From contig JAUWZD010000007.1 of NCBI GenBank assembly GCA_030615505.1, positions 4,702 to 68,701 of the forward strand: DNA of 64,000 nt, read 5' to 3'. Source of the stretch: Spirochaetales bacterium (GTDB lineage Bacteria; Spirochaetota; Spirochaetia; SZUA-6; DRHE01). The stretch's first letter is position 1; each line of letters begins with the position of its first letter. Position numbers and translations under genes: made by a program. The notes under the pieces were generated by a model that was not told the origin of the DNA, searched no databases, and was given only the letters and a program-made list of their open reading frames with translations. Positions 24,606 to 40,716 of this stretch are shown one piece after another.

Positions 24606-25505
24606 CTAGGCAGGATATTTGTCCAGCGCCTTAACTATCTTTTGCGGGGTAATTTTGCCGTAAACATCTTCATCGATGGTCACTACTGGTGCCAGGCCGC
24701 AGCAGCCCAGACAGCGCACAGCTTCCAGCGTAAAGCGTCTATCCCCGGTTGTTCTGCCGGCTTGAACATCAAGCTCCCGCTCAAGGCTTTCCAGAATCCG
24801 CGAGCCTCCCTTAACATGGCAGGCGGTCCCCAAACACACCCTGATGATATGCTCGCCCCGGGGCTCGAGGCTGAACACGTTGTAGAATGTAGCGATACGC
24901 AAGACCCGTGATAGAGGTATTCCAACGGCCTCGGATACATGCCGCATCGCGCCAGGCGGGAGCCACTTGTACCTGGCGTTAATGTCCTGAAGGATAGGGA
25001 GAACCGATCCCCTTTCTCCCTCATGTTCGGCGAGGATTCGGTTCACCTCGCTGAGCTCGCCGGGAGTGAGCTCCAGCGGCTCCGGTTCCGCGGGTTCAAC
25101 ATAGGCCCTGTTCCTCACCAAACAGTTCGCCATGCACTCTCCGCAGCCTGTGCATTGATCAGCTTTTACCGAGCGAGCCTTTTTCCTGACGCGGACTTTG
25201 AAGGCCCCAGGTTCTCCCTCTATGCTTTCAACTTCTGAGTAGGTAAGCTTCTCAATGTTTATGTGGCTCCCGCACTCTACCATTCTTGGTGCAAGTGTGC
25301 ACATTGCACAGTCATTGGTTGGAAAGGTCTTGTCGAGCTGGGACATGACCCCGCCGATAGCGGGACTTCTTTCCACCAAATAGACCTTAAACCCTGCATT
25401 TGCCAGGTCTAAAGATGCCTGCATACCTCCGATGCCTGCCCCCACAACCAGGACTGAACCCACCTTGTTATTACTACCCTGACTACTCAAAGCCATAGCC
25501 TCCAC
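24606..25505 (-). CDS. Fusion protein: HdrA N-terminal FAD-binding segment joined to a NuoE-like [2Fe-2S] domain; first gene of the operon
   Basis: Residues 1..~130 (VLVVGAGIGGMQASLDLANAGFKVYLVERSPAIGGVMSQLDKTFPTNDCAMC...CTGCGECMANC) run parallel to the first ~130 aa of both HdrL genes. The remainder (LPILQDINARYKWLP...RVCLGTACHVKG...CLGCCGLAPVV) is a NuoE/24-kDa-subunit fold. Confidence 0.8.
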   Translation of the reverse strand: MEAMALSSQGSNNKVGSVLVVGAGIGGMQASLDLANAGFKVYLVERSPAIGGVMSQLDKTFPTNDCAMCTLAPRMVECGSHINIEKLTYSEVESIEGEPGAFKVRVRKKARSVKADQCTGCGECMANCLVRNRAYVEPAEPEPLELTPGELSEVNRILAEHEGERGSVLPILQDINARYKWLPPGAMRHVSEAVGIPLSRVLRIATFYNVFSLEPRGEHIIRVCLGTACHVKGGSRILESLERELDVQAGRTTGDRRFTLEAVRCLGCCGLAPVVTIDEDVYGKITPQKIVKALDKYPA

Positions 25506-25610: not shown

Positions 25611-26420
25611 TTACTCATTGCTGCGTTTGCGCCTGCCCCAGGCTATTTTTGAAATCCAGATACTAATCTCATACAATATAATTACTGGAATCGCCAGCAT
25701 AAACTGGGTAAATATATCCGGGGGTGTTAGAATAGCTGATAATATAAACATCAGAAGAATAGCGTATTTTCTTTTTTGAGCTAAGAACTTGGGTGTAACA
25801 AGTCCTATTCTGGTGAGAAAGAGAATTACTAAGGGTAACTCAAAAATCAGTCCAAAGACTGATATTAATAATATAATTATAGATGTATACTTACTGATGG
25901 TAAACATCGGTTTTAAGCCGCTACTGACACTTATCAGAAAGTACAATCCTGCCGGAGACATAATAAAATATGCAAATAGAGCTCCCGCTGCAAATAGAAG
26001 AAAAGATATTGGAAAATAAATAAAGATAATCCTGCGTTCCTTTTTCTCCAGTCCTACTGAAATAAACTTCCATATTTGATAGATAATAAATGGCAGTACT
26101 ATTATAATCCCACTAAAAAATGATACCTTTAATTTTACTATAAAACCTTCAGATGGTCCTATGTAGTGTAAGTCGAATTCCGGATTTTGCAATTTGGCCC
26201 TGACTGATTTAACTAATTCTAAAAAGGGACTGCCCAAAGCAAAGGGATTATCTTTTTTTCCGCTTAAGGCATCCAGGGGGCCGCGTATGATATCCAGGAT
26301 TAAAATATCATAACATAAATAACTGACAATCATTCCAATCACGACAGCCACAAGGCAGAATATTATCCTCATCCTCAACTCACCGAGGTGCTCAAGTAAT
26401 GATTTTTCTTCGTCTATCAA
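25611..26420 (-). CDS. tatC: Twin-arginine translocase subunit TatC (TTG start)
   Basis: LLEHLGELRMRIIF at the N-terminus, six hydrophobic helices, ILTPPD motif. RBS GGGGAG 6 nt upstream of the TTG. Confidence 0.9.
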   Translation of the reverse strand: MIDEEKSLLEHLGELRMRIIFCLVAVVIGMIVSYLCYDILILDIIRGPLDALSGKKDNPFALGSPFLELVKSVRAKLQNPEFDLHYIGPSEGFIVKLKVSFFSGIIIVLPFIIYQIWKFISVGLEKKERRIIFIYFPISFLLFAAGALFAYFIMSPAGLYFLISVSSGLKPMFTISKYTSIIILLISVFGLIFELPLVILFLTRIGLVTPKFLAQKRKYAILLMFILSAILTPPDIFTQFMLAIPVIILYEISIWISKIAWGRRKRSNE

Positions 26421-26425
26421 AGTAA
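26221..26425. repeat. Direct repeat copy A (~205 bp): tatC 5' end plus start region; partner at 37087..37290
   Basis: Visual alignment of 26221..26425 with 37087..37290 shows ~94% identity (about 12 substitutions). Confidence 0.85.
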
Positions 26426-26509
26426 TCTCCCCATGTATGGAATCTGCAAAGTCTTAAGGTAAGCCGATAACAATATTTATCAGACAAGTAAAAATGTCAA
26501 GTATAAATT

Positions 26510-27568
26510 AAAATGATTATCCGGTTCCCTAAGGTTCTTCCTTCAAAATAAAGAGATAGGATGCAACCATCCTGTAAGCTTACCTGAAGCATATAAATCC
26601 TCATAAGTTGGTCCACATTTTTGACTTGCCAATCCCAAGATTGTCTGGAAAGCTGCCATGGGAGTTCTTCGCCTATTATGTCGAAAGACAAACTCATTCA
26701 AGTATGCTTGCAAGTGCTTTCCACTTACTCCGTGATGTGTGCCTTCGAGCCAAACCTTCAAATTGCCTATGGTGCGGTGAATGTGCTCAAGTTCCTTAAT
26801 ACTAACAACTTCATGTATATAGCCTGCCTTATTCAAACCGTCATAACCAGACCAATCATCTGTATAAACTAACGAACCAGGTTCTACATTGCCTTCAACA
26901 AATCCAATAAGAGTTTCACCTGAAACATCAGGGATAACATTTAACCTTAGACGCCCAACACGTTTCTTCTTTGTTGGTTCATCGATAACTTCTATCGCAC
27001 CAGCAACAATTGTTTTTCCTGACACTCCACGACCTCGTTTTCCCGCTTTTGAGGCCCCAATATATGTTTCGTCGACTTCTATAACACTGTGGATTCTATC
27101 ACGATCTGGACGTACCATCGCTGCACGGAGCTTGTGCAGAATTTGATAAGCTGTTTCATATCGATTTATGCTAAGCTGTTTCTGGAACTGAAGAGCTGAA
27201 AAACCTGGTGTATGAGTGGCAACAAGATAAGCACCCCAGAACCATATCACTAATGAAGTTCTTGTACCATGCATGACAGTTCCTGCCGTAATGCTAGTTT
27301 GATTCCCACATTCCGAACATTCAAGTCTACGATAGGTTTCTATATTGTAAGGATCAGCATTAATCTTACATTTAGGGCAAATAAACCCATTGGGCCAACG
27401 GCATTTATAAAGGTAGTCTATGCAAGTTTTTTCGTCAGGAAACCAATGTTGAAATTCAAGGAGTGTTTTCGGAAATGGAATTTTACCTCGCTCATGTCCA
27501 TTCTTGATTTTTTGCACAAATATTATGCTACTTCAGATCACTTCCTTAGTAAACCGGATAATCATTTT
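26510..27568. mobile_element. IS1595-family insertion sequence (ISXO2-like transposase) with ~25-bp imperfect terminal inverted repeats
   Basis: IRs aaaatgattatccggttccctaagg (26510..26534) and ccttagtaaaccggataatcatttt (27544..27568), 2 mismatches. A single transposase ORF lies inside. Confidence 0.75.
26543..27517 (-). CDS. IS1595-family (ISXO2-like) transposase with N-terminal zinc-ribbon
   Basis: CIDYLYKCRWPNGFICPKCK...CSECGNQTSITAGTVMHG (zinc ribbon), then DETYIG...TDDWSGY...YLNEFVFRHNRR, the ISXO2-like DDE domain. Confidence 0.85.
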   Translation of the reverse strand: MQKIKNGHERGKIPFPKTLLEFQHWFPDEKTCIDYLYKCRWPNGFICPKCKINADPYNIETYRRLECSECGNQTSITAGTVMHGTRTSLVIWFWGAYLVATHTPGFSALQFQKQLSINRYETAYQILHKLRAAMVRPDRDRIHSVIEVDETYIGASKAGKRGRGVSGKTIVAGAIEVIDEPTKKKRVGRLRLNVIPDVSGETLIGFVEGNVEPGSLVYTDDWSGYDGLNKAGYIHEVVSIKELEHIHRTIGNLKVWLEGTHHGVSGKHLQAYLNEFVFRHNRRRTPMAAFQTILGLASQKCGPTYEDLYASGKLTGWLHPISLF

Positions 27569-27689
27569 TTTTATTTTATAGCACTTCTTGCCAATATATG
27601 TTTTAAAGAGAGGGTTGGTATAATTCTAAACGCAACTCTTTTTACCATCCTTCTGATTTTTACAGTAAATCCCCGCAAAATTGTCAATT

Positions 27690-28283
27690 TCTCCCAGAAA
27701 TTGCGTATGAAGAATCTCCTCCCATCAGGAGAGTTTATCAGTGAAGTTTACACCCCTTATCAACATATCCTTTTAGGCGCACTTCCCTCTCAGATGGTTG
27801 TCCTTTCCAACGGAGAGATTATCAATAGCATTCCTGAGGTTGTAGATGCCGATAAGGATAGCGCTCTCTTCGTATCTGGAGCTAATTTACCGTAAAAAGT
27901 ACTTATTTTGGGAATTGGCTCAGAAAATTTAATCCGTTCTCTTTTAAAATTCCCCATAAAAAATATAACTTATTGTTCGGAGGATCAGATTTACTATGAT
28001 GAAGTTCAACGAAACCTCCCCTTCGGAATTAAAAAAGAGTTTCCAAGACAGCCGGTTAGAAATTGTTTTCCGTTCTCCTCGGTTATTTTTAAAAGAAAAT
28101 GCATCTCCTGGAAACAGTAGCCAGAAAAAGTTTGACCTGGTCATAGTTAATACCCCTGATCCTTCCAATCTAATAATAAATAATCTTTTTACTCAGGAGT
28201 TTTATTCCCTCCTAAAGGAGAATTTGAAAGACAGGGGAGTTCTGGGCACCCGCATAACATCAGCAGAGAATTATATTGGTTAA
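27690..28283 (+). pseudogene. Spermidine-synthase-like (aminopropyltransferase fold) gene with at least two frameshifts; may originally have continued into the TM segment at 28563..28979
   Basis: Fragments in three frames: EVYTPYQHILLGA...LSNGEIINS...DADKDSALF (27269..27895 ORF tail); MGIGSENLIRSLLKFP...SEDQIYYDEVQ (27908..28120); FDLVIVNTPDPSNLIINNLFTQEFYSLLKENLKDRGVL (27996..28283). AT-rich. Confidence 0.5.
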
Positions 28284-28562
28284 GAAATCAGAAATTATGG
28301 TTCCTGCCTTTATTATACTTTAAAAGAGGTATTCCCTAAAATTGTCATCGTGCCGGGGAAAATAAACTGGTTTTTCGCCGGAGCTAACGATTCTTCTTTA
28401 ACAGAGGATGCATCCGTTTTGGAATCGCGGTTTAAAAAATTGGCTCCTTTTGTTTAAGAGAGGTAAATTCCTGAACCGTGATGCACATCCTTTAACTTTC
28501 TTCCTTAATCTTCTTGTCATGGCACGCTATTCCAGCTCATCGGTTTAATCAATTCCCTCTTT

Positions 28563-28979
28563 ATGCTTGGATTATGTATAGGGGGCTTTTGGGAAAAGTC
28601 TTTTATAAAGAGTTTTCCCATCCTAAAAACAATAGTTTCCATATTATCTATTCAATCAATATTGATTCTCATTGCTTACCCAATTTTTAATCAGCTAAAT
28701 CTTGTCCCTCAAGCACTATTTATTCTTTTTATCGTTTTTTTCTTAATTTCTGGAATCTTAACAGGAAGCTCTTATCCTCTTTGTGCCCAACTGCTTCAGT
28801 ATAATAATATTTCATTGTTAAATACTGCAGTAAATTTAGAACTCCTCGACCACTGGGGAGGTTCATTGGCAGGATTAATAACAGGATTGTTCATGCTGCC
28901 CCTCTTAGGAGTATTTAATACTCTACTCGTTCTGTTTTTTGTTTGCTTTACTTTATTAGTGCTTTTTTTATGGAAGTAA
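28563..28979 (+). CDS. Hydrophobic membrane protein (3-4 predicted TM helices); possibly a remnant C-terminal segment of the disrupted upstream gene
   Basis: 138-aa ORF made almost entirely of hydrophobic helices; no catalytic motifs. Confidence 0.3.
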   Translation: MLGLCIGGFWEKSFIKSFPILKTIVSILSIQSILILIAYPIFNQLNLVPQALFILFIVFFLISGILTGSSYPLCAQLLQYNNISLLNTAVNLELLDHWGGSLAGLITGLFMLPLLGVFNTLLVLFFVCFTLLVLFLWK

Positions 28980-30547
28980 TCCCTATTCATCTTATTGTAG
29001 GAGAAAGAAAGCTTCAGAGATTATCCCTTCCCTACGTTCGAACTTCTTTCATTCTGCTGGCGATAGCTATATCTTTTTTGCTTGACTCCTATCTTTTGGA
29101 GAGAAAGAGAGATGTCCAGGTGGAAAAGCTCTCTCTGATTGTAAAAATGACAGGAGAGAAGTTCAACAGACAAAAAACTCCTTTTCCTGCCTACCTATCT
29201 CAAAGCAAAGAAAAAAGGATATATGTCCTGGATTCCGATGATTATGCTCCCCGGATAAGGGGATTTGCTGGCCCAATAAACCTTCTTATCGGAGTAGATG
29301 CAAAGGGAGAAATCCAAGAAATAAGAGCATCCCCACATAGGGAGACTCCTTCTTATGTCTTAGGTATGGATAATTTTTTGTCTAAATTTAAAAGTCTTCG
29401 GTTAGGGCAAAAATTTTTTCTCACCACAAAGCGAGACTCACATCAGCAAATCCCTCAAACGGGTGCTTTCGGCGGAAATATAGATGCCATGAGTGGAGCA
29501 ACAATTACCTCTCAAGCATTGATAGACATTGTAAATGAAACGGGCAGCAAGCTTAGAGAAATAGAAGCGTTTGGATTATCGAAGGAGAGCTTAGAGCAAA
29601 AGGATGTGGCCTCTTTAGCTATTGATGTCCCTTCTTTAGTCCTTATCTTCTTCACTGTATCAGCAATTGTACTTTATCTGTTCTTCTCTGATAAAGTAAT
29701 GCTGAGGAGGGTATATCTTTTCCTTTCAGTGATTTTTTTAGGATTTTTTTATAACTCTACTTTTTCTGTTTTTCATCTAAGCAAGCTTTTCACTTTCAAT
29801 TTACCGTCCTTTACATTGCTATCGATTATTCTTATATATCTTATTCCTTTAACCTTAGCTATATTGTTTGGGCCAGTATGGTGCGGCTGGATATGTCCTT
29901 TTGGAGCGCTTCAAGAGCTGTTAGGGAGTTCCAGATTATCTTTTAAGGTATCTAAAAAACTCGATAAAAAGGCGAGGTACTTTAAGTTTGCATTCCTGGC
30001 ATTCTTTATCGTAGTTATATCTCTCGAGAGAGAAGCATCTTTTTTCAAGCAGGAACCTCTCTCTATGTTTTTCCTTAATCCTACTAGGATTTCTTTTGAT
30101 AAACTTTTGTGCATTGTCATAATAATATTATCAATTTTTTTCTTAAGATTCTGGTGCAGGTATTTCTGCATCTGCAGGGCATTACTTTCTTTCTTTAATA
30201 AGATTTCTCCTCTTAAAAGGCTTTTCTCTAAAAACTACAAAAATTACCCCTTTGGCATTGAGGGTCCCCATGATTTAGATTGTATTCACTGTAATCTGTG
30301 TCTGTATGCCATAAGAAAGGATATGAGGAAAGATAGCTACTTTAAGATCGCCTTCTTTTTTACCATTCTGCTAATGATAATAATATTTTTTTCTAATATA
30401 AAAATACAGAAGCCAACTTCATATCGTACAGAAGCAGGAGAGAGGATTCTTTTTGAAAGAATAGATAAAGAGAGAATAGAAAGGCTCATCGAAGAGGATA
30501 AGCTTTCCAATAAGGAAGCCATGTTCTATGAGGTTATAGAGGAGTAA
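28943..30547 (+). CDS. NosR/NirI-like membrane protein: FMN-binding domain plus polytopic TM region with CxxxCP and ferredoxin-like Cys motifs
   Basis: GGNIDAMSGATITSQALIDIV (FMN_bind motif), PVWCGWICPFGALQE (NapH/NosR-type CX3CP), CIHCNLCLYAI, about 8 hydrophobic helices. AT-rich. Confidence 0.55.
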   Translation: MLYFISAFFMEVIPIHLIVGERKLQRLSLPYVRTSFILLAIAISFLLDSYLLERKRDVQVEKLSLIVKMTGEKFNRQKTPFPAYLSQSKEKRIYVLDSDDYAPRIRGFAGPINLLIGVDAKGEIQEIRASPHRETPSYVLGMDNFLSKFKSLRLGQKFFLTTKRDSHQQIPQTGAFGGNIDAMSGATITSQALIDIVNETGSKLREIEAFGLSKESLEQKDVASLAIDVPSLVLIFFTVSAIVLYLFFSDKVMLRRVYLFLSVIFLGFFYNSTFSVFHLSKLFTFNLPSFTLLSIILIYLIPLTLAILFGPVWCGWICPFGALQELLGSSRLSFKVSKKLDKKARYFKFAFLAFFIVVISLEREASFFKQEPLSMFFLNPTRISFDKLLCIVIIILSIFFLRFWCRYFCICRALLSFFNKISPLKRLFSKNYKNYPFGIEGPHDLDCIHCNLCLYAIRKDMRKDSYFKIAFFFTILLMIIIFFSNIKIQKPTSYRTEAGERILFERIDKERIERLIEEDKLSNKEAMFYEVIEE

Positions 30548-30666
30548 ATTACGTTTATTTTCCAAACGGCCGCGCTCATCCTGCACCTTAAGACCAGCCT
30601 TGAAAGGTCAAGATTGTGAAATACGGGACTCTCCCCCACTAAGATATTCGTACCAGGAAAAAAATA

Positions 30667-30984
30667 TCAAAAAGGTTCTAAAAATAACAACATCTTGCCT
30701 CCGCAGACATCTCCATTCCGAGTGCCTAGATCGTCTGTAAGATCTACTTCTATTAGTTCGGTGGTTTTAGTAGTGATAATACAGCGAAGTGCGGCAGTCC
30801 GGACATTGTCCTCTCCACATCCCCCTCCTACGGATCCATACAAAGTACCATCGACACAGACAATCATCTTAGCTCCTTGCTCCCGTGGAGTGGAACCGAT
30901 GGTTTCAACGATGGTAGCAAGACAAACAGCTACTCCGCGATTTCGAAGCTCTGCAAGTTTGCGAAAGATTTCTTGATCGGTCAT
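30667..30984 (-). CDS. XdhC/CoxI N-terminal-domain-only protein (105 aa)
   Basis: VCLATIVETIGSTPREQGAKMIVCVDGTLYGSVGGGCGEDNV...DVCGGKMLLFLEPF. 4-bp overlap with the upstream xdhC. Confidence 0.7.
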   Translation of the reverse strand: MTDQEIFRKLAELRNRGVAVCLATIVETIGSTPREQGAKMIVCVDGTLYGSVGGGCGEDNVRTAALRCIITTKTTELIEVDLTDDLGTRNGDVCGGKMLLFLEPF

Positions 30985-31748
30985 TTGCTACCTCCAACCG
31001 CTGTTCTCAAAGCTAGCACTCCTGCCGAACCCTTCCTGCGTATGCAAACAAGCTCAGCCACGATGGAGATGGCAATCTCAGCAGGCGATTCGGCCCCGAT
31101 TGGAAGCCCAATCGGAGTAAAGACTTCTTTCAGACGATCTTGAGGTATACCCTCTTGAGCTAATATGTCTAAAACAAAGCGAATCCTTCGGCGGCTTCCG
31201 ATAAGTCCAACGTAAGCAGTTTCATTGCGCAATATCTCAACAAGACACTCTATGTCATGCTCATGGCCACGCGTTATCACGACAACATAGGTGGATGGGC
31301 TGAGGGGCATATCACGCAAGGCTTCTGTGAAGTCCTCCGCAATCACCTTACAATCAGGAAAGAGAGACGTGTGAGCAAACTCAGATCGATCATCGAGCAC
31401 AGTAACACTAAATCCAACTTGGCGGGCAAAGCGCGTTAGGTGTAAGGCTATATGACCTGCGCCGCATACCAGAAGCTTCGCATCAGCTGAAAGAACATCG
31501 ATAAAGACTCTTACTCCGTGAGCAATTTCAACAATGCGTTTCTTCTTCTCTTTGAGAGCCTCCAGAGCCGGATCACACAAAGTCATTCTCAACTGCTTCG
31601 ACTCAATTTCTCCCTCCATCGATCCATCCCTCAATATAATCACTTTCCGACCAGATGGGACATCCGAGCGGTGAGAGGCTACGATAGTGGCAAGACAAAA
31701 AGTTTCCCCTTTTTCCAGAAGTTCATTAACTCTATCAATAAGCTCCAT
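30981..31748 (-). CDS. xdhC: XdhC family protein (molybdenum-cofactor insertion/sulfuration accessory; XdhC_CoxI plus Rossmann XdhC_C)
   Basis: FCLATIVASHRSDVPSGRKVIIL...KLLVCGAGHIALHLTRFARQVGFSVTVLDDR...ITRGHEHD. Confidence 0.8.
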   Translation of the reverse strand: MELIDRVNELLEKGETFCLATIVASHRSDVPSGRKVIILRDGSMEGEIESKQLRMTLCDPALEALKEKKKRIVEIAHGVRVFIDVLSADAKLLVCGAGHIALHLTRFARQVGFSVTVLDDRSEFAHTSLFPDCKVIAEDFTEALRDMPLSPSTYVVVITRGHEHDIECLVEILRNETAYVGLIGSRRRIRFVLDILAQEGIPQDRLKEVFTPIGLPIGAESPAEIAISIVAELVCIRRKGSAGVLALRTAVGGSK

Positions 31749-31866
31749 AAGTACTTCAATAATAAATCAATAATTGGTGAGGAGAAAGTAATCTGCAAGG
31801 CATTAAAGGCGGTTTTACAAGGCGAAAAACCCACCTATCCGCTGAATCAGGTTTGATAAGGTATGG

Positions 31867-32916
31867 TCAGCCCTTAAAGCTTATCCCTCTGCCCTCTTTG
31901 ACCTCGCCAATGATCCAGCAGGGATGTCCCCGCCGCTCGAATAATTCGAACAGCCGATCCAGCTTATTAGGCCTTACGGAAGAGAGTAGCCCCCCCGATG
32001 TTTCCGGGGTAAAAAGCATCAACTGCTCTTTTTTGCCTATGGAGGCTTCAAAACGAACCTTCCCGACGTAACAGTTCCTGTTACGGAACGTACCGCCTGG
32101 AAACAGATTCTTTTCTGCATACTCCCGGGCACCCTCCAAAAAGGGAATCTTTTGCATAAATAAAGAGAGCTGCACATTACTATTATCAGCCATCTCCAGG
32201 CCGTGGCCCATCAGGGAAAACCCGCTAACATCCGTACAGGCCTGCACACCGACTTCCTGAAAGATGCGGGCGGCCTGGCGGTTCAGTTTTTTCATACTGG
32301 CAACTGAAGCGGAGATCTCCGGCTCACTGGCGATTTCCATTTTTAAAGCCGTAGTGGTAATACCAGTGCCCAGAGGCTTGGTGAGAACCATCAGATCCCC
32401 CGGACGGGCATTCGCCTTCTTCAGGATCCGATGCGGATTTGCCAGACCTGTAACGGCCAATCCGTATTTAAGCTCCTTATCTATTAGCGTGTGTCCCCCG
32501 GCCAGGACGCCTCCGGCTTCAGCCACCTTATCAGCACCACCGCGCAGGATATTTTCCATGGTCTCTGAGGACAGATCTTCGGGAAAGCAGCAGACATTCA
32601 GGGCCAGGGTAACCTCACCGCCCATGGCATAGACATCGCTTAGAGAATTGGCAGCCGCGATTGCGCCGAAGTCGTATGGATCGTTTACAATGGGCGGGAA
32701 AAAGTCTATGGTCTGGATCAGTGCACACTCTTCACTGATCTTATACACCGCCGCATCATCGCTGACCGCCAGTCCTACTAAAAGATTGGGGTATTGATCC
32801 GGATTAAAATAACTCTTTAAAAGGCGCAGGACCTGCGCCAGGGTCTCAGGACCCATCTTGGCCGCTCACCCAGCCGCAGAAGATAAAGCTGTAAGCGGAA
32901 TAGTTCGCTCAGCCAA
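31867..32916 (-). CDS. selD: Selenophosphate synthetase SelD, selenoprotein form: TTG start at 32916, in-frame UGA (Sec) at 32868..32866
   Basis: The ORF track starts at ATG 32856, but in-frame upstream translation gives (L/M)AERTIPLTALSSAAG-U-AAKMGPETLAQVLRLL. This matches the SelD N-terminal motif (E. coli ...[25 protein letters not shown]) with TGA at the catalytic Cys/Sec position. GGAGG RBS 6 nt upstream of the TTG. Downstream DAAVY...DFFPPIVNDPYDFGAIAAANSLSDVYAMGG is the AIR-synthase-like fold. Confidence 0.8.
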
Positions 32917-33196
32917 CTGCTTACCTCCAATCCCTTTATTAATCCATGGTGATTCTTTCACAAACTTGTTCCAATTTCAAGCAGGTGCGTTCCCAAGGTA
33001 AATCAGATAGTTGTTTTTGGTTTGATTCGTTTTCGACAGGTAGCCTATTACTATGCCCAGAATTAGGGCAGCTTCAAGAATTTCCCTCAGCATAATTATG
33101 TAACTGGACAGCACAATTTTTCTCCTGTAGTCTGATCAGGTTATAGGTAGCATCCCGCGCATGAGTCCTCCATATGGCTCCGCGGCTCTTCTCAGC

Positions 33197-33532
33197 TTAC
33201 CTATCACGAGGATCATTCAGTTTGCAACAGTCAAGCTTTTTGCCTCCAAACTGCTTCCTGTTATTCTCGGCCATTCGGCCAAGAAAGCGCTCAAGAGGAC
33301 TCTTTTTCTTCTCAACAGCAGCAGTAATACAGCAGCCTGAATCGATAATCTCTTCTTTGATGCAATCGATAGACAGAATCCGCCGGCAGTATTCGATCCT
33401 GATGCCGCTTTCCTGGAGGGCGACGTTATTCACACCCTCCATTTTCATCAACCTTTCATAGAAAGCGGAAGCCGCCTCCTGTGATGGACGATCTTCTAAA
33501 GGAATCACAGATACTGATAAGTACTCTTCCAT
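33197..33532 (-). CDS. Hypothetical Cys-rich small protein (GCC and DCC motifs), next to copZ
   Basis: 111-aa ORF with SGCCITAA and LDCCKLNDP; no recognisable family. Confidence 0.35.
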   Translation of the reverse strand: MEEYLSVSVIPLEDRPSQEAASAFYERLMKMEGVNNVALQESGIRIEYCRRILSIDCIKEEIIDSGCCITAAVEKKKSPLERFLGRMAENNRKQFGGKKLDCCKLNDPRDR

Positions 33533-33603
33533 AAATATCTCCTCTTTTCGGGTAGGCGAAGAGGAAGTAGAGGTGTGAGCTCCCTCTGCGCAGTGAATCA
33601 GAT

Positions 33604-33813
33604 TCAGGAGACTCGATAGCCCTGAGCCTCTATGGTTTCTTTGATCTGGGGTAACCCGACCTGGCTCTCATCGTAGCGAACGGCAACCGATTTTCCTTCC
33701 AGGTCTACCTCGACGTTCGTAACTCCCTGTAAGGCATCCACTGCCTTTTCCACCGTCATCTTGCAGTGGTTGCAGGTCATGCCTTCCACTGTAAGCTTGT
33801 TTTCTATAGCCAT
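33604..33813 (-). CDS. copZ: Heavy-metal-associated (HMA) domain copper chaperone CopZ-like
   Basis: LTVEGMTCNHCKMTVEKAV, the GMTCxxC motif in a 69-aa protein. Confidence 0.85.
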   Translation of the reverse strand: MAIENKLTVEGMTCNHCKMTVEKAVDALQGVTNVEVDLEGKSVAVRYDESQVGLPQIKETIEAQGYRVS

Positions 33814-33840
33814 CTTTTTCTCCTTCTTTTGGTTTGACGT

Positions 33841-34074
33841 TTAATTTCCTTTAGCTATAAATCGTTTCAGACTCAGTGAGTTTGAAACCACCGATACAGA
33901 GCTGAACGACATGGCAGCTCCTGCAATGATCGGGCTCAGCAATCCTACCGCGGCAACTGAAATGCCCACGGCGTTGTAGAAGAATGCCCAGAAGAGGTTC
34001 TGCCGGATCTTGGTCATGATCTTTCGTGAAAGCTGTAAAACTGCCCCTATCGTACGCAGATCACCTTTCATCAA
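33841..34074 (-). pseudogene. C-terminal fragment (~77 aa) of a heavy-metal P-type ATPase (CopA-like); the rest of the gene is absent
   Basis: [49 protein letters not shown] matches the last two TM helices of CopA-type ATPases. The upstream gene is unrelated (a kinase 23 bp away). Confidence 0.7.
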
Positions 34075-34096
34075 AGTGACATCGGCAGACGGGTAT

Positions 34097-35797
34097 CTAC
34101 ATGTTCTTTATCTCTCTGAATTTGATTCGGAATTCTGTCCCTTCATCTCTGTTTAGCTCTATCTTACCCTCAAGCTGTTCCTCTGCTAAACCGGTGACCA
34201 GTTTTAAACCTAATGATTCAATATCTCTGAAGTCCAAATCTTCTGGTATTCCAACACCGTTATCGCTGACCATCAGTTCAATCTCATTTTCATCAGTTGA
34301 GTTAAGGGATATCTTGATCTTACCTCTTCTGCCTTCGGAAAAGGCATGTTTCAGAGAATTGGAAACCAGCTCACTGATGATAAGTCCAAGCGGAATGGCA
34401 TTATCAATTCCTAAGTAAACATTTCCCAGATCCATTTCTAGTGAAATTCTGCCTGCTCTTCCTACATAAGTCCTGAATAAGTCATTTGCAAGATTCTTGA
34501 TATAATCACAGAAATTAATGCACGAAAGGTCTTTGGACTGGTAAAGTTTCTCGTGGATAAGTGCCATCGATTTTATACGGTTCTGGCTTTCTTTGAACAT
34601 CTCAATATACCTTTTATCCTTGATATGTCTGGACTGAAGCTTAAGCAGGCTTGTTATAACCTGCATATTGTTCTTGACCCTGTGGTGGATTTCCCTCAGA
34701 AGCACCTCTTTCTCTCTGAGAGATGCCTTGATTTGCTCTTCAGCCTTCTTACGTTCGGTAATGTCACGACTTATTCCTATCAATCCCCTGATGTTTTCCT
34801 GGTCGTCAAGGATGGGACATTTGATGGTTTCTAAGCAAAGCCTCTCGCCCTTATCGTCAGTCATTTGCTCTTCGATACGGATTGGCTTGCGCCTTTTGAT
34901 GACTTCTTCATCGCTCTTTCGACACAGCTCGGCCATTTCTGGAGGGAGGAATTGTTCATCGTTTTTTCCGAGGATCTTTTCTCTCTCCAAACCCACCAGT
35001 TTCTCAAGTGCTTTGTTCACCACAATATTGCGGCCCTGCGCATCCTTAAAATATACAGCATCAGGAATAGTCTCGATTAACGTATTAAGCTTTGTGTTTG
35101 CCTCCCGCAGCGCTTTTTCCGCCTGCTTGTGCTCAGTGATTTCTTGTTCAAGTTGTTCATTGGTCCTTTCTAATTCGATTGTGCGCTGCTCTACCTTCTC
35201 CTCAAGGTGGTCACGGTATTTCCTCAATTCCTCCTCTGCTTTTTTCCGCTCGGTGATTTCTCCATGCAACTGTTCATTTGTTTCTTTAAGCTTTTTAGTT
35301 CGGGAAGATACTAAACGTTTGAGCATCCAAATCCATAAGAGAAAAGCCACGGCTCCCAACAGGACCATAAGCAGTCCAATTACAAGCAATCGCTGTATCT
35401 CTTTTGCTCTTATTTGTTTTCTTTTGATAGGGACAAATATGAACTTATCTAGATCCAAATCCCCTTCAACTATCCCGCTCTGTTTAAGAAAAGTGTGCAT
35501 GCGTCGCCAGCGATCAGGGTTAGTATGACCTACAGGCACTATTGGATAAAGAATCAGCTTGCGAACTCTTTCATCCTGAAAATGATTGAAAGATTTAAAG
35601 TCATCCACGGCAATGATACGTGGTAGCTCGCGAGCAATTCTATATGCAATTGACTCAGGATTTTCTAGTGCATACATCCAGCCATTTAGGCTGGCCTGGA
35701 TGAATCTTTGAACCAGATCCGGATTCCGGTCAACCAGACGTTGGTGGGTGAACAGTGAATCTCCATAGAAATCGACTCCATAGGTCGATGGCAGCAA
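34097..35797 (-). CDS. Sensor histidine kinase, HisKA_2 type, with PAS domains and coiled-coils; N-terminal periplasmic binding-protein-like domain appears 5'-truncated
   Basis: [20 protein letters not shown] (HisKA_2 H-box), GLGLKLV (ATPase), two PAS-like regions. The ORF begins mid-way through an SsuA/NMT1-like binding domain with no signal peptide and no upstream coding. Confidence 0.7.
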
Positions 35798-36399
35798 ACT
35801 CTTTAATTGATAGGAAAAATTATAATTTGAGAAAGGAGAAAAATCAAAAAAAACGGAGTAATTTTCGCAAAAACTGACGAGATTCTCTTAAAAATCGCAT
35901 CTTATAGAGAAAAGCCAGGTATAGGATGTTTTGCAATCCGATTTTTAGCCATTAAGCCATTAGATTAGCATAATCATGCCTATCTGTCGATTCTTTAAAG
36001 AAATTGAGAACGTATATTACCCCTGGAAGATTGTAAGAGAAAATAAAAAGACAGTTTCACTTAATTCCATTCAGAGAGGCTGGATCAGGTCCGGGAGGGG
36101 TATGATGAGTTTTTACAAGATGCCTAAGGATTTTTTTCACCTCATCAGGATCGGTAATGACAGCTATTATCTTCATGGGAGATGCACATTTTTGGTAGTG
36201 CGGTCCATAATACTATACCTGCCGATTCACATACCTCACATAGAAAATCTTAAAACCACTAAAACAGGGTCGGCAGATCACCGTAAGTTCTTATTCGTAA
36301 ACGAAGTCTCCAGACTACACGCCTGCTTGTTCGCACTAGAACGACTTCCAGTTCTCCTGATTTAACCTTTTGCAAAACGGTCTACCGGCTTAACCCTGG

Positions 36400-37080
36400 G
36401 GCTGCAGTCGCTCTCTTATACGGCAGCCAACCCTCACCAACATCAACCGGTTTTAGCTTCTCGATATCCTGTTCAGTGATCACGATATGCCACGGAGCTC
36501 CATCCGTCAACTGTGAACCGCGCAGTAAGCTGGCTTCTACCCATCGAATGACTGTACTTCGATAGACTCCAAACAGCTCTGCTGCTTTCGAGCCAACACT
36601 CTCAGCCGCTTTCCGGCCAGGGGGTGCGGTGGGTATGTAATGTAGATTTCCGATAGCAGATCATCATCGGCATAAGTAGTCTGCAACGCAGTACGGACAG
36701 ATAAAGGGGTGAACTTCAAAGATCTAAAAACAAAAACTGGATTGTCTATGCGAAGCGTCCTTTTGCCGGTCCCGAACAAGTACTGGAATATCTGGGCCGC
36801 TATACCCATAGAGTGGCTATCTTCAATCACCGGATCAAGTCGATCAAGGATGGGAAAGGTGTGGTTAAGAATCCCAAGCATCGGGCCTTATTGATGACCG
36901 TTTATGGTACTGGTTTACGAGTAAGCGAAGTTGTCCGATTAAAGCCCTGTCATATCGAAAGTGATCGAATGTCGATTCGCGTGGAACTGTCGCAACCGCC
37001 ATTGTCCTAAGTGTCAGACCCTGGTCAAAGAGAGGTGGCTACAGGAACGTAAAGATGAACTCATACCTGTTGGTTATTTC
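36400..37080 (+). pseudogene. Remnant of an IS91-family element: degenerate tyrosine-recombinase-like ORF fragments plus the N-terminus of an IS91-type transposase, cut off at 37080
   Basis: Frames give KHRALLMTVYGTGLRVSEVVRLKPCHIESDRMSIRVE (integrase-like), then CPKCQTLVKERWLQERKDELIPVGYFQF (IS91 transposase N-terminal zinc motif). The element ends abruptly at the tatC repeat. Confidence 0.5.
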
Positions 37081-37086
37081 CAATTT

Positions 37087-37290
37087 TAAAAAGGGACTGC
37101 CCAGAGCAAAGGGATTATCTTTTCTGCCGCTTAAGGCATCCAAGGGACCGCGTATGATATCCAGGATCAAGATATTATAACATAAATAACTGACAATCAT
37201 TCCAACCACGACAGCCACAAGGCAGAATATTATCCTCATCCTCAACTCACCGAGGTGCTCAAGTAATGATTTTTTTTCGTCTTTCAAAAC
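37087..37290. repeat. Direct repeat copy B (~205 bp): duplicated tatC 5' end encoding an 82-aa truncated TatC N-terminus (ORF 37039..37287, TTG start), abutting the selB stop
   Basis: About 94% identical to 26221..26425. Encodes MKDEKKSLLEHLGELRMRIIFCLVAVVVGMIVSYLCYNILILDIIRGPLDALSGRKDNPFALGSPFL versus TatC MIDEEKSLLEHLGELRMRIIFCLVAVVIGMIVSYLCYDILILDIIRGPLDALSGKKDNPFALGSPFL. Confidence 0.85.
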
Positions 37291-39242
37291 AAGTCTCCTG
37301 CTTTGAGTGCTGCAATTCCTTTCTCCGTTATCAGGCGAAGATCTCCTGATCGTTGGGTAACACCCTCACTATCATATATAGCTAGTAATAACAGGCATAT
37401 TTTCCTGTTACCTTTAACAAGGTTACGAAACTCTGCCACTGTCATACCCTCTTTCCGGCAGGCAAGAGCCTTCAGCAACATCTTTCTGCATCGATCTACT
37501 AAAGAGGCATGGAGGTAACTATCATCTATAAAATAGACCTCCTTCTTTTCAACAAGATAGCGCAGGATATTGTTCAGCCCCTTTTCATCAATATCCTGGC
37601 TTTTCGCGGCAAGAATAAGTTCGGACATAAGGGGGGCCTTCATTTTGCAACTCTTCAGAAAATTTGCTACAAAACTTATCTGGCGATTCAATTCCTGCTC
37701 AATGTCTACTGAGTGATTATTTAGTGCCCAGGTATGTTCAACCTGTTTCAACTTCCCCTCCGCTTCCAGTTTATTAAGTAAAAGATGTAGAAAAACTTCT
37801 GCCGGGCAATCACGATCTATCCTCAATATGCCCATAAGTTCTTCGGTTGTACGTCCTCTCTTAACAAGCGGGTTTCTTCTGTGAAAGGAAGCAATATTTT
37901 TCAACAGCTGTTCCTCTAATCTATCGCATTCTCTCTTTACAATTAGATAGATATTGTCGCCGTAAGTAGAGCAGAATAGATCTTCCGGCAACGAGTTGGA
38001 AACTACTGCGTGCACCTGGTTGGGTGAGACATTCAGTAGATCAGCGATCTCCCTGTGTGTAACCACGCTTAAGCGCTTTCTTACTTCCAAAGCAACAAGT
38101 TCCTGGAGTTTTCCTTCAGCAATCCTGGTCATGCTTTCAATCAATTTTCCAGAACGCCGGCGGTGAAGCAGAGGGAATGTATCAATTACCACACCTCCCC
38201 CAAGAGTTATATCACTCGATGTATTCCGGATTACGAACCTATCACCCCATTGGACATTGAGGGGGTCTTCCAGATGTATCTGAACAAGGGCAGTGTTTCC
38301 CCCGGTTAACCTATCACAATCAATCAAGTGGACTCTTGCCTGTTGTTCATATGTACCAAGATGAAAAATCACCAGGTTCCATAATTTAGTGAAACTGCGA
38401 TTATGATGAAAGAGACGCAGTCTGGCATCCAGCATTTTAGTATGACGAAGAATACGGTCTGAGATGATCATACCTCTTTTAAAATCCTGGCGGGTAAGAC
38501 CTACAAGGTTTATTGCTGCCCTGTCACCAGCAACTACCTCTTCATCTTCTTTTCCGAAGCATTCAATCCGCCTCACTCGCAGCTTCTTTTCTCCAGGTAA
38601 TAGGTAAGCCGTATCACCCACACGCAGGGTACCGCCTATCACTGAGCCGGTGACAACCGTTCCAAAGCCCCTCACACTGAAGATCCGGTCAATAAACATC
38701 CTGAAAATCTCACCCACTGGTCTATCAGTAATTCGTGATGCTACCTGGTTAATACATTCCCTTAACTGATCAAGACCATCACCATTGATTGCAGAAACTT
38801 TTACAATCGGGCAATTCTCCAGAAAGGTTCCGGAAACAAGTCCTTTTATCTCATCCTCGGCCAAGTCGACAATCTCAGGTTCAACCAGATCAATTTTCGT
38901 TATTGCCACAAGTCCACTTCGTACGCCCAGTACGTCCATAATCTGAAGGTGCTCATGTGTTTGGGGCATCACACCACTATCTGCCGCAACAACCATCAGG
39001 GCAAAATCCAAACCACATGCACCTCCAACCATTGTATGGACAAAATCGCGATGACCTGGAACGTCTATAATGCCGATTATGTCACCAGAAGAAAGAGCTA
39101 AATACGCAAAACCCAGATTTATTGTTATCCCGCGCTTCTTCTCCTCCTGGTGAGTGTCACAGTCAATTCCTGTCAACGACTTTATTAACGCCGTTTTCCC
39201 ATGGTCAATATGGCCTGCGGTACCCATAATAAGGTGTTTCAA
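37284..39242 (-). CDS. selB: Selenocysteine-specific elongation factor SelB
   Basis: MGTAGHIDHGKTALIKSLTGIDCD...ITINLGF...DVPGH (EF-Tu-like G domain), then winged-helix C-terminal domains; 652 aa. Confidence 0.9.
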   Translation of the reverse strand: MKHLIMGTAGHIDHGKTALIKSLTGIDCDTHQEEKKRGITINLGFAYLALSSGDIIGIIDVPGHRDFVHTMVGGACGLDFALMVVAADSGVMPQTHEHLQIMDVLGVRSGLVAITKIDLVEPEIVDLAEDEIKGLVSGTFLENCPIVKVSAINGDGLDQLRECINQVASRITDRPVGEIFRMFIDRIFSVRGFGTVVTGSVIGGTLRVGDTAYLLPGEKKLRVRRIECFGKEDEEVVAGDRAAINLVGLTRQDFKRGMIISDRILRHTKMLDARLRLFHHNRSFTKLWNLVIFHLGTYEQQARVHLIDCDRLTGGNTALVQIHLEDPLNVQWGDRFVIRNTSSDITLGGGVVIDTFPLLHRRRSGKLIESMTRIAEGKLQELVALEVRKRLSVVTHREIADLLNVSPNQVHAVVSNSLPEDLFCSTYGDNIYLIVKRECDRLEEQLLKNIASFHRRNPLVKRGRTTEELMGILRIDRDCPAEVFLHLLLNKLEAEGKLKQVEHTWALNNHSVDIEQELNRQISFVANFLKSCKMKAPLMSELILAAKSQDIDEKGLNNILRYLVEKKEVYFIDDSYLHASLVDRCRKMLLKALACRKEGMTVAEFRNLVKGNRKICLLLLAIYDSEGVTQRSGDLRLITEKGIAALKAGDLF

Positions 39243-39291: not shown

Positions 39292-40716
39292 TTAGCCCAG
39301 AGATTTAATCGATTCCGAGATTGAATGAGCTATATATTCAATATCTTCCTCAAATACAGTCAATACATCAAAAACAATCTTACCTTCGCGCAACACCCCA
39401 ACAATGGGACGTTCAAGGCTAAGGAGTCTCTTAAAAATTTGCTCGGCAAAGCTCAACTCATGCTCACCTTCTCTATTCTGCGGCAAAACTTCTACCGCGG
39501 CACTCTTAAGTCTAACAGCAGGTAATGTTCCGCCACCGCATTGGCCCTCGCTTGCATTCAGCCGGGCAGAGATTTCAAGGCTTGATAGTTCTTCAAGAAG
39601 TCTTGAAGCAATGGATTTCAGTTCCCCCTGACTCCTATCCAAAATGGCAAAAGTCGGGCAGGAAGAGGAGAGTTTTTTATCATCGAGATATTGCCTGCAC
39701 ACACTTGAAAGAGCTGTGAGTGTTAATTTTCCAACCCGTACAGCCCTCATAATTGGAGAACGGCTGAGACGCGAGATCAATAAAGCTTTGCCTGCAGCAA
39801 TTCCTGCCTGCGGACCGCCTAAGAGTTTATCGCAACTAAATGTCACAATGTCAGCGCCGGATGCTATCGCACTGCGGACATCCGGTTCATTCTGTAGAAG
39901 TATTCCCTTTAGCTTACTGAGAAGTCCTGAACCAATATCATACACCATTGGCAAATTATGCGTATGTGCCAGATGCGATAAATCTTTTACCGAGACTTCT
40001 TCAGTGAAGCCGGTTATTGTGAAGTTGGATCTATGGGCTTTGAAGAGTAATGCTGTTCGTGGAGTAATCGCTTCCTCGTAGTCAGAAAGACGAGTCTTGT
40101 TCGTTGTTCCAACCTCGACCATATGGACACCACTGGCTTCAATGATCTCTGGAATACGAAATGAGCCGCCAATTTCTATCAGTTCCCCTCTTGAAATAAT
40201 TACTTCACGATCGCGGGCCAGGGTATTGAGGACAAGGACTATAGCTGCGGCATTGTTGTTAACAACCACAGCATCTTCTGCCGAGGTTAGGAATTTCAGT
40301 ATCTCAACAACATGCTTGTTCCTGCTGCTGCGACAGGCATACTTAAGGTCATACTCTAAATTAGAATAGCCTTTAGCAACCTGTGATATATCATTTATGA
40401 CTTCCTGCCCCAGAGGTGCTCGACCAAGATTCGTGTGAAGCACCACTCCGGTTGCATTAATCACCGGCTTAAGTGACTGTCCTGAGATGCAGCTCACCAG
40501 GTCCTCAATATCTGAAATAATGAGCTCCATTGTGCAGGTGTTTTTACCATCCAGGATACTATCTCTGAGGCGCTTTATCACTTTGCGGGTGGCATAGGTT
40601 ATAAGCTCACGGCTGTTTTTATTAATCAATCCCCTTATAATGGGATTGTTTAACACCAGGTTAACGCTGGGTAAACTTCTTAAGTTTTTATTCTCAGGCT
40701 TAATGTTACTGGTCAT
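39292..40716 (-). CDS. selA: L-seryl-tRNA(Sec) selenium transferase SelA
   Basis: VINATGVVLHTNLGRAPL signature; PLP-fold region ...IVTFSCDKLLGGPQAGI. Confidence 0.9.
   Translation of the reverse strand: MTSNIKPENKNLRSLPSVNLVLNNPIIRGLINKNSRELITYATRKVIKRLRDSILDGKNTCTMELIISDIEDLVSCISGQSLKPVINATGVVLHTNLGRAPLGQEVINDISQVAKGYSNLEYDLKYACRSSRNKHVVEILKFLTSAEDAVVVNNNAAAIVLVLNTLARDREVIISRGELIEIGGSFRIPEIIEASGVHMVEVGTTNKTRLSDYEEAITPRTALLFKAHRSNFTITGFTEEVSVKDLSHLAHTHNLPMVYDIGSGLLSKLKGILLQNEPDVRSAIASGADIVTFSCDKLLGGPQAGIAAGKALLISRLSRSPIMRAVRVGKLTLTALSSVCRQYLDDKKLSSSCPTFAILDRSQGELKSIASRLLEELSSLEISARLNASEGQCGGGTLPAVRLKSAAVEVLPQNREGEHELSFAEQIFKRLLSLERPIVGVLREGKIVFDVLTVFEEDIEYIAHSISESIKSLG

Follow-up and report, generated by a model that had tools for sequence, protein, structure and literature searches.

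How did the first codons of tatC, a housekeeping translocase gene, come to stand on both sides of a 10.87-kb block of DNA next to the selenocysteine (Sec) genes selA and selB? The locus lies in a 64,000-nucleotide stretch from a Spirochaetales bacterium (contig JAUWZD010000007.1), hereafter called the window. A preliminary description of this DNA had read it as Campbell-type integration, in which a circular element with a captured 205-bp tatC 5' fragment from a related lineage entered by a single homologous crossover. We find that the block is an insertion, that the two tatC 5' ends differ in ancestry and that donor-type sequence continues beyond the repeat. We tentatively favour a one-sided import of sister-lineage DNA, with a homology anchor in tatC and an illegitimate joint at the other end.

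Two tatC 5' ends flank an insertion

Read along the minus strand, the locus runs selC, selA, selB, an 82-aa open reading frame (ORF), the block, an insertion sequence (IS) of the IS1595 family, an 88-nt spacer, the intact tatC and a nuoE/HdrA-like gene. The tatC features are:

25611..26420, minus strand: tatC, intact and mosaic, 269 aa (Pfam TatC 1-208/208, E=1.6e-68)
26215..26421, minus strand: copy A of the repeat, forming the 5' part of the intact tatC; its identity is 98.1% with the L008 clade and 94.2% with copy B
26422..26509, minus strand: ancestral selB-tatC spacer, 88 nt upstream of the intact tatC; promoter-like TTGACA-17-AATATT at 26500-26472 (promoter scan) and a GGAG ribosome-binding site
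37082..37288, minus strand: copy B of the repeat, putatively the resident tatC 5' stub; 68 homologous codons, opening the 82-aa ORF at 37039-37287

Self-comparison of the 24-40 kb region places the direct repeat at 26215-26421 and 37082-37288, with 207 nt, 94% identity and a spacing of 10,867 nt. The pair is the sole repeat of at least 60 nt at more than 72% identity across the whole window, and is thus not due to chance. The preliminary description had seen these tatC 5' repeats at about the same identity; its coordinates were off by 4-6 nt only. A second, weak direct repeat (14019-14162 and 18482-18625; 144 nt, 72% identity) probably reflects paralogous Fe-S/HdrA-like genes.

Copy A makes up codons 1-68 of the 269-aa TatC. 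Copy B belongs to the minus-strand ORF at 37039-37287. The TTG start of this ORF and the stop of selB overlap in TTGA, and its product retains a TatC N-terminus profile score; it is the truncated N-terminus that had been described before. Aligned over 206 nt from the TTG start onward, copies A and B show 12 mismatches and no indels. Their longest identical run measures 68 nt, and at the 3' boundary the repeat ends in 17 identical nt. Half of the 12 differences are synonymous and half non-synonymous; the resulting pN/pS of 0.27 means that most of the divergence arose within working genes and not in a decaying paralog. In the protein collection the 82-aa stub is listed as an NCBI protein, within the cluster of full-length TatC (P0176).

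Related loci were found in two ways. A SelB search of GTDB representative genomes gave L004, a contig of a 'Ca. Glassbacteria' metagenome-assembled genome (SelB identity 89%), and TatC searches of metagenome and protein indexes gave L008, L009, L036, L037/L038, L040, L042 and L043. In all 8 of these distinct contigs the site is empty. L004 has tatC directly after selB, followed by the nuoE-like gene, and the relatives found through TatC show the order rSAM-tatA-selC-selA-selB-tatC-nuoE-like (rSAM, radical-SAM gene) with nothing intervening; tatC is single-copy in every relative. By blastn, L008, L009 and L040 align to the window at ~92% up to position 37289 and resume at 26508, the position to which the alignment ends in L008 (3765) and L040 (7241) both map. 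Because selB and tatC are contiguous in the relatives and the alignments skip 26508-37289, the 10.87 kb between the copies is an insertion relative to the clade. The selA-selB-tatC layout once supposed to be ancestral is therefore seen directly, and no relative that we found has the gene order of the window without the repeats.

The two copies also sit in different junctions. Most relatives carry a 92-nt spacer from the selB stop to the tatC start, with a conserved TTGACA-17-AATATT and a GGAG ribosome-binding site. L004 is the only relative without it: a precise 93-nt deletion has run the start codon of tatC into the selB stop (TTGA). Copy B has this deleted, overlapping type of junction, otherwise present in L004 only. 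Copy A has the spacer, which begins ~5 nt past the position of the selB stop in spacer-type relatives and is cut there by the end of the IS1595 element. The earlier claim that tatC had lost its native upstream context to IS1595 DNA thus stands in part: the spacer is of another allele than the stub and is truncated by IS1595, but 88 nt of ancestral sequence, with the promoter-like motif and GGAG, have been kept. By its sequence, the 93-nt presence/absence polymorphism (window 26422-26509 and 37284-37290; L004 805-825; L008 3756-3856; L042 270-335) moves tatC from its own predicted promoter to putative translational coupling with selB.

Ancestry changes along the locus

With three taxa and no outgroup, a comparison yielded no topology, and L037 turned out to be hardly more distant than the others in selA-selB. 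We therefore built neighbour-joining trees for each segment with 200 bootstraps and read them as unrooted splits.

The last 763 nt of selB group the window with L004 (90.5% bootstrap). In tatC nt 1-206, copy A joins the L008 clade while copy B falls with L004, L042 and L037, again at 90.5%. Copy B shares residue N38 and a GGC codon with L042, a contig of the L004 clade (N38 is also found in TatC P0002). Site-by-site comparison revealed no state common to A and B alone, to the exclusion of the relatives. Given this absence, the 90.5% split and the differing junction types, the two copies are alleles of two lineages and not recent paralogs, which agrees with the different origins proposed for them earlier. 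A recent tandem duplication was rejected on the same grounds, namely the lack of common derived sites and the different junctions.

Further into the intact gene, tatC nt 207-330 place the window on a branch of its own, ~89% identical to every relative, and include three L004-type sites at 26145-26108. From nt 331 to 720 the window groups with the L008 clade at 100% bootstrap, with 96.9% identity against a backbone level of ~91%. From nt 721 to 600 nt downstream of the gene it groups with L004 and L042, also at 100% (95.5% identity). Both outer flanks are hence L004-like, on the selB 3' side and from about tatC nt 720 through the nuoE-like gene. Between them the donor-like, L008-clade tract reaches ~500 nt beyond the repeat and switches to the resident type at about tatC nt 720-790. 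Fine-scale mosaicism is visible along the whole locus.

The donor-type sequence is consequently not limited to the 205-bp captured fragment of the preliminary description. From copy A onward, the working tatC would be mostly a donor allele if copy A is the foreign and copy B the resident one.

Two joints of different nature

The mobile elements at the borders of the block are:

26510..27568, minus strand: element of the IS1595 family, transposase intact (324 aa, 26543-27517); it bounds the non-homologous block on the right
36385..36660, minus strand: mobile debris with a weak, excisionase-like HTH_17 fragment (Pfam E=0.003, below cut-off)
36705..37086, plus strand: IS91-family debris; Pfam Y2_Tnp (4e-13), then a 37-aa tyrosine-recombinase fragment (Phage_integrase, 2e-4, below cut-off), then Zn_Tnp_IS91 (7.8e-12)

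On the left, the Zn_Tnp_IS91 fragment (36943-37086, plus strand; profile 51-85/90) reads into copy B and is cut at the joint, ~37081/37082. There, tatC nt ~207 abuts position 85 of the 90-position Zn_Tnp_IS91 profile, with a possible overlap of at most 5 nt. Neither side is the end of an element, and as the joint lies inside a gene it is an illegitimate or deletion joint. Rolling-circle capture by IS91 as its direct cause was rejected, the joint being inside the transposase ORF. The IS91 fragments are out of order: Y2_Tnp covers only 85-139/183 of its profile and the integrase fragment lies between the two. In the block, IS91 is represented by the Zn_Tnp_IS91 and Y2_Tnp fragments with no complete element, oriIS or terIS identified, and ORF and Pfam scans of it detected no intact integrase, relaxase, replication or transfer gene. 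Two Logan contigs assembled from one run (SRR14872670), L007 and L006, end at 36138 and at 37245, the latter inside copy B. These breaks suggest that the sample contains further copies of the IS91/integrase/HTH debris at 36138-37081.

On the right, the IS1595 element has 25-nt inverted repeats (26510-26534 and 27544-27568) that are 92% complementary, and its transposase carries an N-terminal zinc ribbon (Pfam 7.4e-31 and 9e-14; NCBIfam transpos_IS1595 5.9e-56). It lacks the 8-bp target duplication, its flanks reading TATAAATT and TTTTATTT, so that its two sides were not contiguous before. The 64-kb window holds one IS1595 copy only. A composite transposon or a simple IS transposition was rejected, since a second IS copy and a target duplication are both missing and the other border is an IS91 fragment. 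As for the circular element of the preliminary description, neither a circle nor an integrase or att core is evident; the left joint lies inside the IS91 ORF and not at an element end, and the IS1595 on the right has no target duplication.

Proposed origin of the locus

We now propose, with a confidence just short of even, that sister-lineage DNA was imported at one side by homology in tatC and joined at the other by illegitimate recombination, much as in homology-facilitated illegitimate recombination (HFIR). The recipient would have been an L004-like chromosome with selB and tatC overlapping as TTGA and no spacer between them. The donor would have been a spacer-type sister lineage in which the block already occupied a harmless position, with selB on one side and the promoter-bearing tatC spacer on the other. 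That donor block would have held the IS91 and integrase remnants, the truncated kinase, a copA'-copZ-LDCC-Sec-selD-xdhC module, the NosR-like gene and IS1595. After uptake of ~11.6 kb of DNA or more, a homologous crossover on the right, near tatC nt 720-790 (window ~25700-25630), would have anchored it, while its left end, broken inside the IS91 transposase gene, would have been joined illegitimately to the resident tatC at nt ~207.

As a result, the first 68 resident tatC codons would persist as a stub (copy B), still translationally coupled to selB, and the working tatC would be mostly the donor allele, driven by the predicted promoter of the donor spacer. A Sec-type selD and metal-handling genes would have been placed beside selC-selA-selB. 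One donor tract, from the end of copy B to tatC nt ~720, would account for all the ancestry switches. We infer here that a single event made the whole locus, that copy A is foreign and copy B resident, and that the substrate was linear rather than circular.

HFIR is a documented outcome of DNA uptake, in E. coli conjugation (PMC3240628), and discontinuous donor tracts are common after transformation (PMC13344027). By analogy, a discontinuous uptake tract could explain the non-donor patch at tatC nt 207-330.

Several points weigh against this proposal. That patch, equally distant from all relatives and weakly L004-sided (63.5% bootstrap), means that the donor tract is not cleanly continuous. 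The spacer of copy A differs from that of L008 at 13 of 88 positions, compared with 4 of 206 in the coding part, so that the donor is not the sampled L008 clade itself and the region is finely mosaic. The L008-like tract at nt 331-720 could come from a separate event, as these lineages recombine often. None of the relatives found has the donor state, with the block between selB and the spacer and no stub. Microhomology at the left joint is not definable without an intact copy of this IS91 element, and the contig is a metagenome assembly whose letters by themselves would permit strain-level chimerism. Three features have no explanation under the proposal: the 13% divergence of the spacer from L008, the patch at nt 207-330 and the lack of a target duplication at IS1595.

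Alternative explanations

The Campbell-type route, by which a circle with the spacer and a related-lineage tatC 5' end integrated through a single homologous crossover, is in our estimate unlikely. Its topology fits exactly: 207-nt direct repeats of the same orientation flank the inserted DNA, the truncated copy keeps its native upstream (selB) and the complete copy has a foreign one (IS1595 and spacer). The copies are of different lineage, and tatC nt 207-330 are not L008-like, as expected for a crossover inside the repeat. An IS91-family remnant adjoins the stub, and IS91/ISCR elements are known to move neighbouring DNA and have been linked to partial duplications of the flanking 3' conserved segment (3'-CS) in ISCR1-linked class 1 integrons (PMC3575428). 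However, a single crossover inside the repeat does not explain an L008-like nt 331-720 tract (100% bootstrap) together with L004-like selB 3' and post-nt-720 sequence. This route would require either that the circle carried 720 nt of tatC or more and that a deletion with its end in the IS91 transposase gene later shortened copy B, or that a second, unrelated recombination took place. No switch to the donor type occurs along copy B. The tatC/IS91 joint, inside the transposase ORF and not at terIS or oriIS, lends no direct support to rolling-circle capture, and the block has no intact replication, transfer or recombinase gene. Distinctly unlikely is an origin in two or more unrelated steps, where IS1595 and IS91 activity and deletions built the block in place, and homologous recombination or gene conversion of the ordinary kind between co-existing lineages, earlier or later, gave copy A and the tatC body their different ancestry. 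Fine-scale mosaicism over the whole locus would fit it, as would the several rearrangements implied by an IS1595 without target duplication, by internally deleted IS91 and integrase fragments and by at least 4 breakpoints inside the block. Transposition in place nevertheless makes no 207-nt target duplication; the duplicates would be paralogs with common derived states, of which none is seen, and the ancestry switches coincide with the left insertion border.

An assembly artefact, either a contig chimera of co-occurring strains through the tatC 5' sequence or a mixture of an empty site and a free circle, is very unlikely, even though the contig derives from a metagenome, contigs of an independent (Logan) assembly from the same run stop within the repeat and at 36138, and the mosaic ancestry resembles that of strain chimeras. 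With 12 differences and a maximal identical run of 68 nt, shorter than usual reads, the copies can be phased, which also makes a collapse or duplication artefact unlikely. Both odd joints (tatC nt 207/IS91 and IS1595/spacer) must physically exist, the two Logan contigs are 100% identical to the window over 12.4 kb, with L006 covering selB and ending 39 nt into copy B, and the L008-like tracts are 97-98%, not 100%, identical to that clade. Highly improbable is a decayed site-specific island that carried a replacement 5' end with a promoter into the tatC 5' end, in the manner of e14 and of phage 21 in icd. The duplicated gene end does restore an intact gene, the last 17 nt of the repeat, at the 3' boundary, are identical, and a tyrosine-recombinase fragment and a weak excisionase-like helix-turn-helix lie less than 700 nt from the left border. 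Yet the integrase fragment has 37 aa (E=2e-4), lies on the same strand between the IS91 transposase fragments and looks as if it belonged to an IS91-associated unit; the border falls within the IS91 transposase ORF, 8 of 8 related contigs have no element at this site, no genome with other cargo at tatC nt ~190-207 beside an intact integrase was found, and the donor-like tract runs 500 nt past the supposed core. An island targeted to selC was rejected, as the insertion is 3.5 kb from selC, inside tatC. We find hardly credible an old tandem duplication of the selB-tatC region within the lineage, followed by decay of one copy: the repeats are direct and of the same orientation, but A and B have no derived state in common, lie on opposite sides of the 90.5% split and have different junction types, pN/pS is 0.27, and all relatives are single-copy.

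A bolder view, which we regard as a long shot, is this: the block may be a still-mobile island without integrase, its promoter-bearing tatC 5' segment serving as a RecA-dependent homing cassette between sister lineages. It would always land at selB-tatC, restore tatC expression, bring Sec-selD to the selCAB cluster and leave via the 207-nt repeats. Judging from the 68-nt identical run, excision through these repeats is possible in principle; it would delete the block and restore an overlapping selB-tatC.

Resident backbone and cargo of the block

The genes around the insertion are:

24606-25505, minus strand: nuoE/HdrA-like gene, downstream of tatC
37284..39242, minus strand: selB (Pfam), resident; its stop overlaps the start of the tatC stub
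39292..40716, minus strand: selA (Pfam SelA, E=4.7e-132), resident; collinear with relatives at ~92% nt identity
40741..40834, minus strand: selC (tRNA-Sec; Rfam RF01852, 70 bits; ARAGORN anticodon TCA), resident; directly upstream of selA

In L036, L037 and L040 the wider neighbourhood comprises genes for a Mo-formate dehydrogenase, an Fe-S subunit, NrfD, FdhE and UbiA, then tatA, two radical-SAM genes, tatA, selC, selA, selB and tatC. This conserved formate dehydrogenase-tatA-selCAB-tatC cluster ties Tat export, selenocysteine insertion and formate dehydrogenase together. Near 25500 the GC content jumps from ~36% in tatC to 54-58% in the nuoE-like and nuoF-like genes and beyond. Since the order of tatC and the nuoE-like gene is the same in the relatives, this boundary belongs to the backbone, and it may mark a much older acquisition.

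Between the border elements, the block contains:

27569-28979, plus strand: spermidine-synthase-like pseudogene, in frameshifted pieces (Spermine_synth fragments)
28943-30547, plus strand: NosR-like membrane protein (FMN_bind and Fer4_5)
30599..34090, minus strand: transferable module of the copA tail, copZ, LDCC protein, Sec-selD and two xdhC; shared with L039 at 96-97% nt identity
30667-30984, minus strand: xdhC, 105 aa, a second XdhC_CoxI domain
30981-31748, minus strand: xdhC, 255 aa, with XdhC_CoxI and Rossmann domains
31867 to ~32916, minus strand: Sec-selD with an in-frame TGA (Sec codon at 32866-32868) in the motif SSAAG-U-AAK
33197-33532, minus strand: LDCC-motif, Cys-rich mini metal-binding protein
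33604-33813, minus strand: copZ (HMA domain)
33841-34074, minus strand: copA tail, shown as such by a longer HAD-domain ORF in L039
34097..35797, minus strand: 5'-truncated PAS/HisKA_2 histidine kinase (Pfam), with positions 167-215 only (the last 49) of the NMT1 profile

All gene labels given in the preliminary description hold against Pfam and NCBIfam, the Sec motif and the comparison with L039, as does its view of the block as a mosaic insertion. Calling everything between the copies accessory or decayed was too broad, as Sec-selD, both xdhC, copZ and the NosR-like gene look intact by sequence. The internal breakpoints fall at 34090, 30599, 35797 and 27569 at least. GC is patchy, with 35-39% at 27.5-30.5 kb, 47-51% at 30.6-33.5 kb and 42% in the kinase, and gives no clean split between block and backbone; the backbone alone shifts from 36% (tatC) to 55% (nuoE-like gene).

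The segment 30599-34090 matches positions 640-3915 of L039, a contig of another metagenome, at 96-97% nt identity between flanks that differ on both sides. In L039, copA extends further upstream, the first 800 bp of selD are missing and xdhC is preceded by a 608-bp insert. The best non-self match of SelD among 5.8 billion proteins is only 65-66%, whereas the backbone proteins have relatives at ~90%. By these two comparisons the copA'-copZ-LDCC-Sec-selD-xdhC module is foreign to the clade and moved recently. The two xdhC ORFs overlap, and since L039 keeps the same arrangement they probably form a functional, split XdhC-family maturation factor rather than a frameshift.

No match to the whole block was found among PLSDB plasmids by megablast. 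Exact-protein look-ups of the TatC, the nuoE-like protein and the IS1595 transposase of the window returned no match, probably owing to start-codon choice or cut genes; that of SelD gave a Logan contig only and not the 68.9-kb NCBI contig.

Relation to known systems

HFIR was described by de Vries & Wackernagel (2002) and Prudhomme et al. (2002), as cited in PMC5361080, and has been proposed for Vibrio cholerae effector-immunity arrays of the type VI secretion system and for strings of Rhs orphans, where orphan remnants stand beside incoming modules (PMC5361080). In the reading we favour, the present locus would resemble these cases in having one homologous-anchor end and one illegitimate end, in the addition of foreign cargo, in related donor and recipient, and in the remnant of a displaced resident gene beside an incoming functional allele. 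It differs in that the remnant is a 5' stub and not an orphan 3' end or immunity gene, that the anchor is a housekeeping translocase, that most of the 10.7-kb cargo is decayed mobile DNA and that the process is inferred from sequence, in an uncultivated organism.

With Campbell-type events, and with ISCR1-linked class 1 integrons that have truncated 3'-CS and 3'-CS duplications (PMC3575428), the locus has in common direct repeats of host sequence, one copy of them truncated, an IS91-family element at the border by the truncated copy and the lack of a target-site duplication. In contrast to them, its IS91 is cut inside the transposase gene and donor-type sequence extends ~500 nt beyond the repeat. 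Composite transposons and IS cointegrates likewise have an IS at or near both borders and mosaic cargo, but here the elements belong to two IS families, one of them a fragment, no target duplication is present, and transposition leaves the diverged 207-nt duplication unexplained.

The integrative elements e14 and phage 21 carry a substitute gene end into icd. As here, the element is bordered by a diverged duplicate of a gene end, and insertion leaves the target gene intact. Unlike them, the block has no intact integrase and no defined core, its duplicated end is a 5' end with a promoter, all relatives lack an insertion at the site and the border falls within a gene of an IS.

Significance

The event is of a known kind and leaves current understanding unchanged; its value is that of a clean case study. 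For annotation, the 'TatC' ORF next to selB is a stub that will mislead automated tatC copy counts, and the tatC gene itself is a mosaic. In the reading we favour, the incoming allele would have replaced the resident one, leaving a stub behind, and a foreign Sec-selD would have been brought beside selC-selA-selB. The expression of tatC would thereby shift from translational coupling with selB to its own predicted spacer promoter. The locus would thus offer a natural example, from an uncultivated lineage, of foreign DNA entering a chromosome without dedicated integration machinery, with a housekeeping gene as its anchor.

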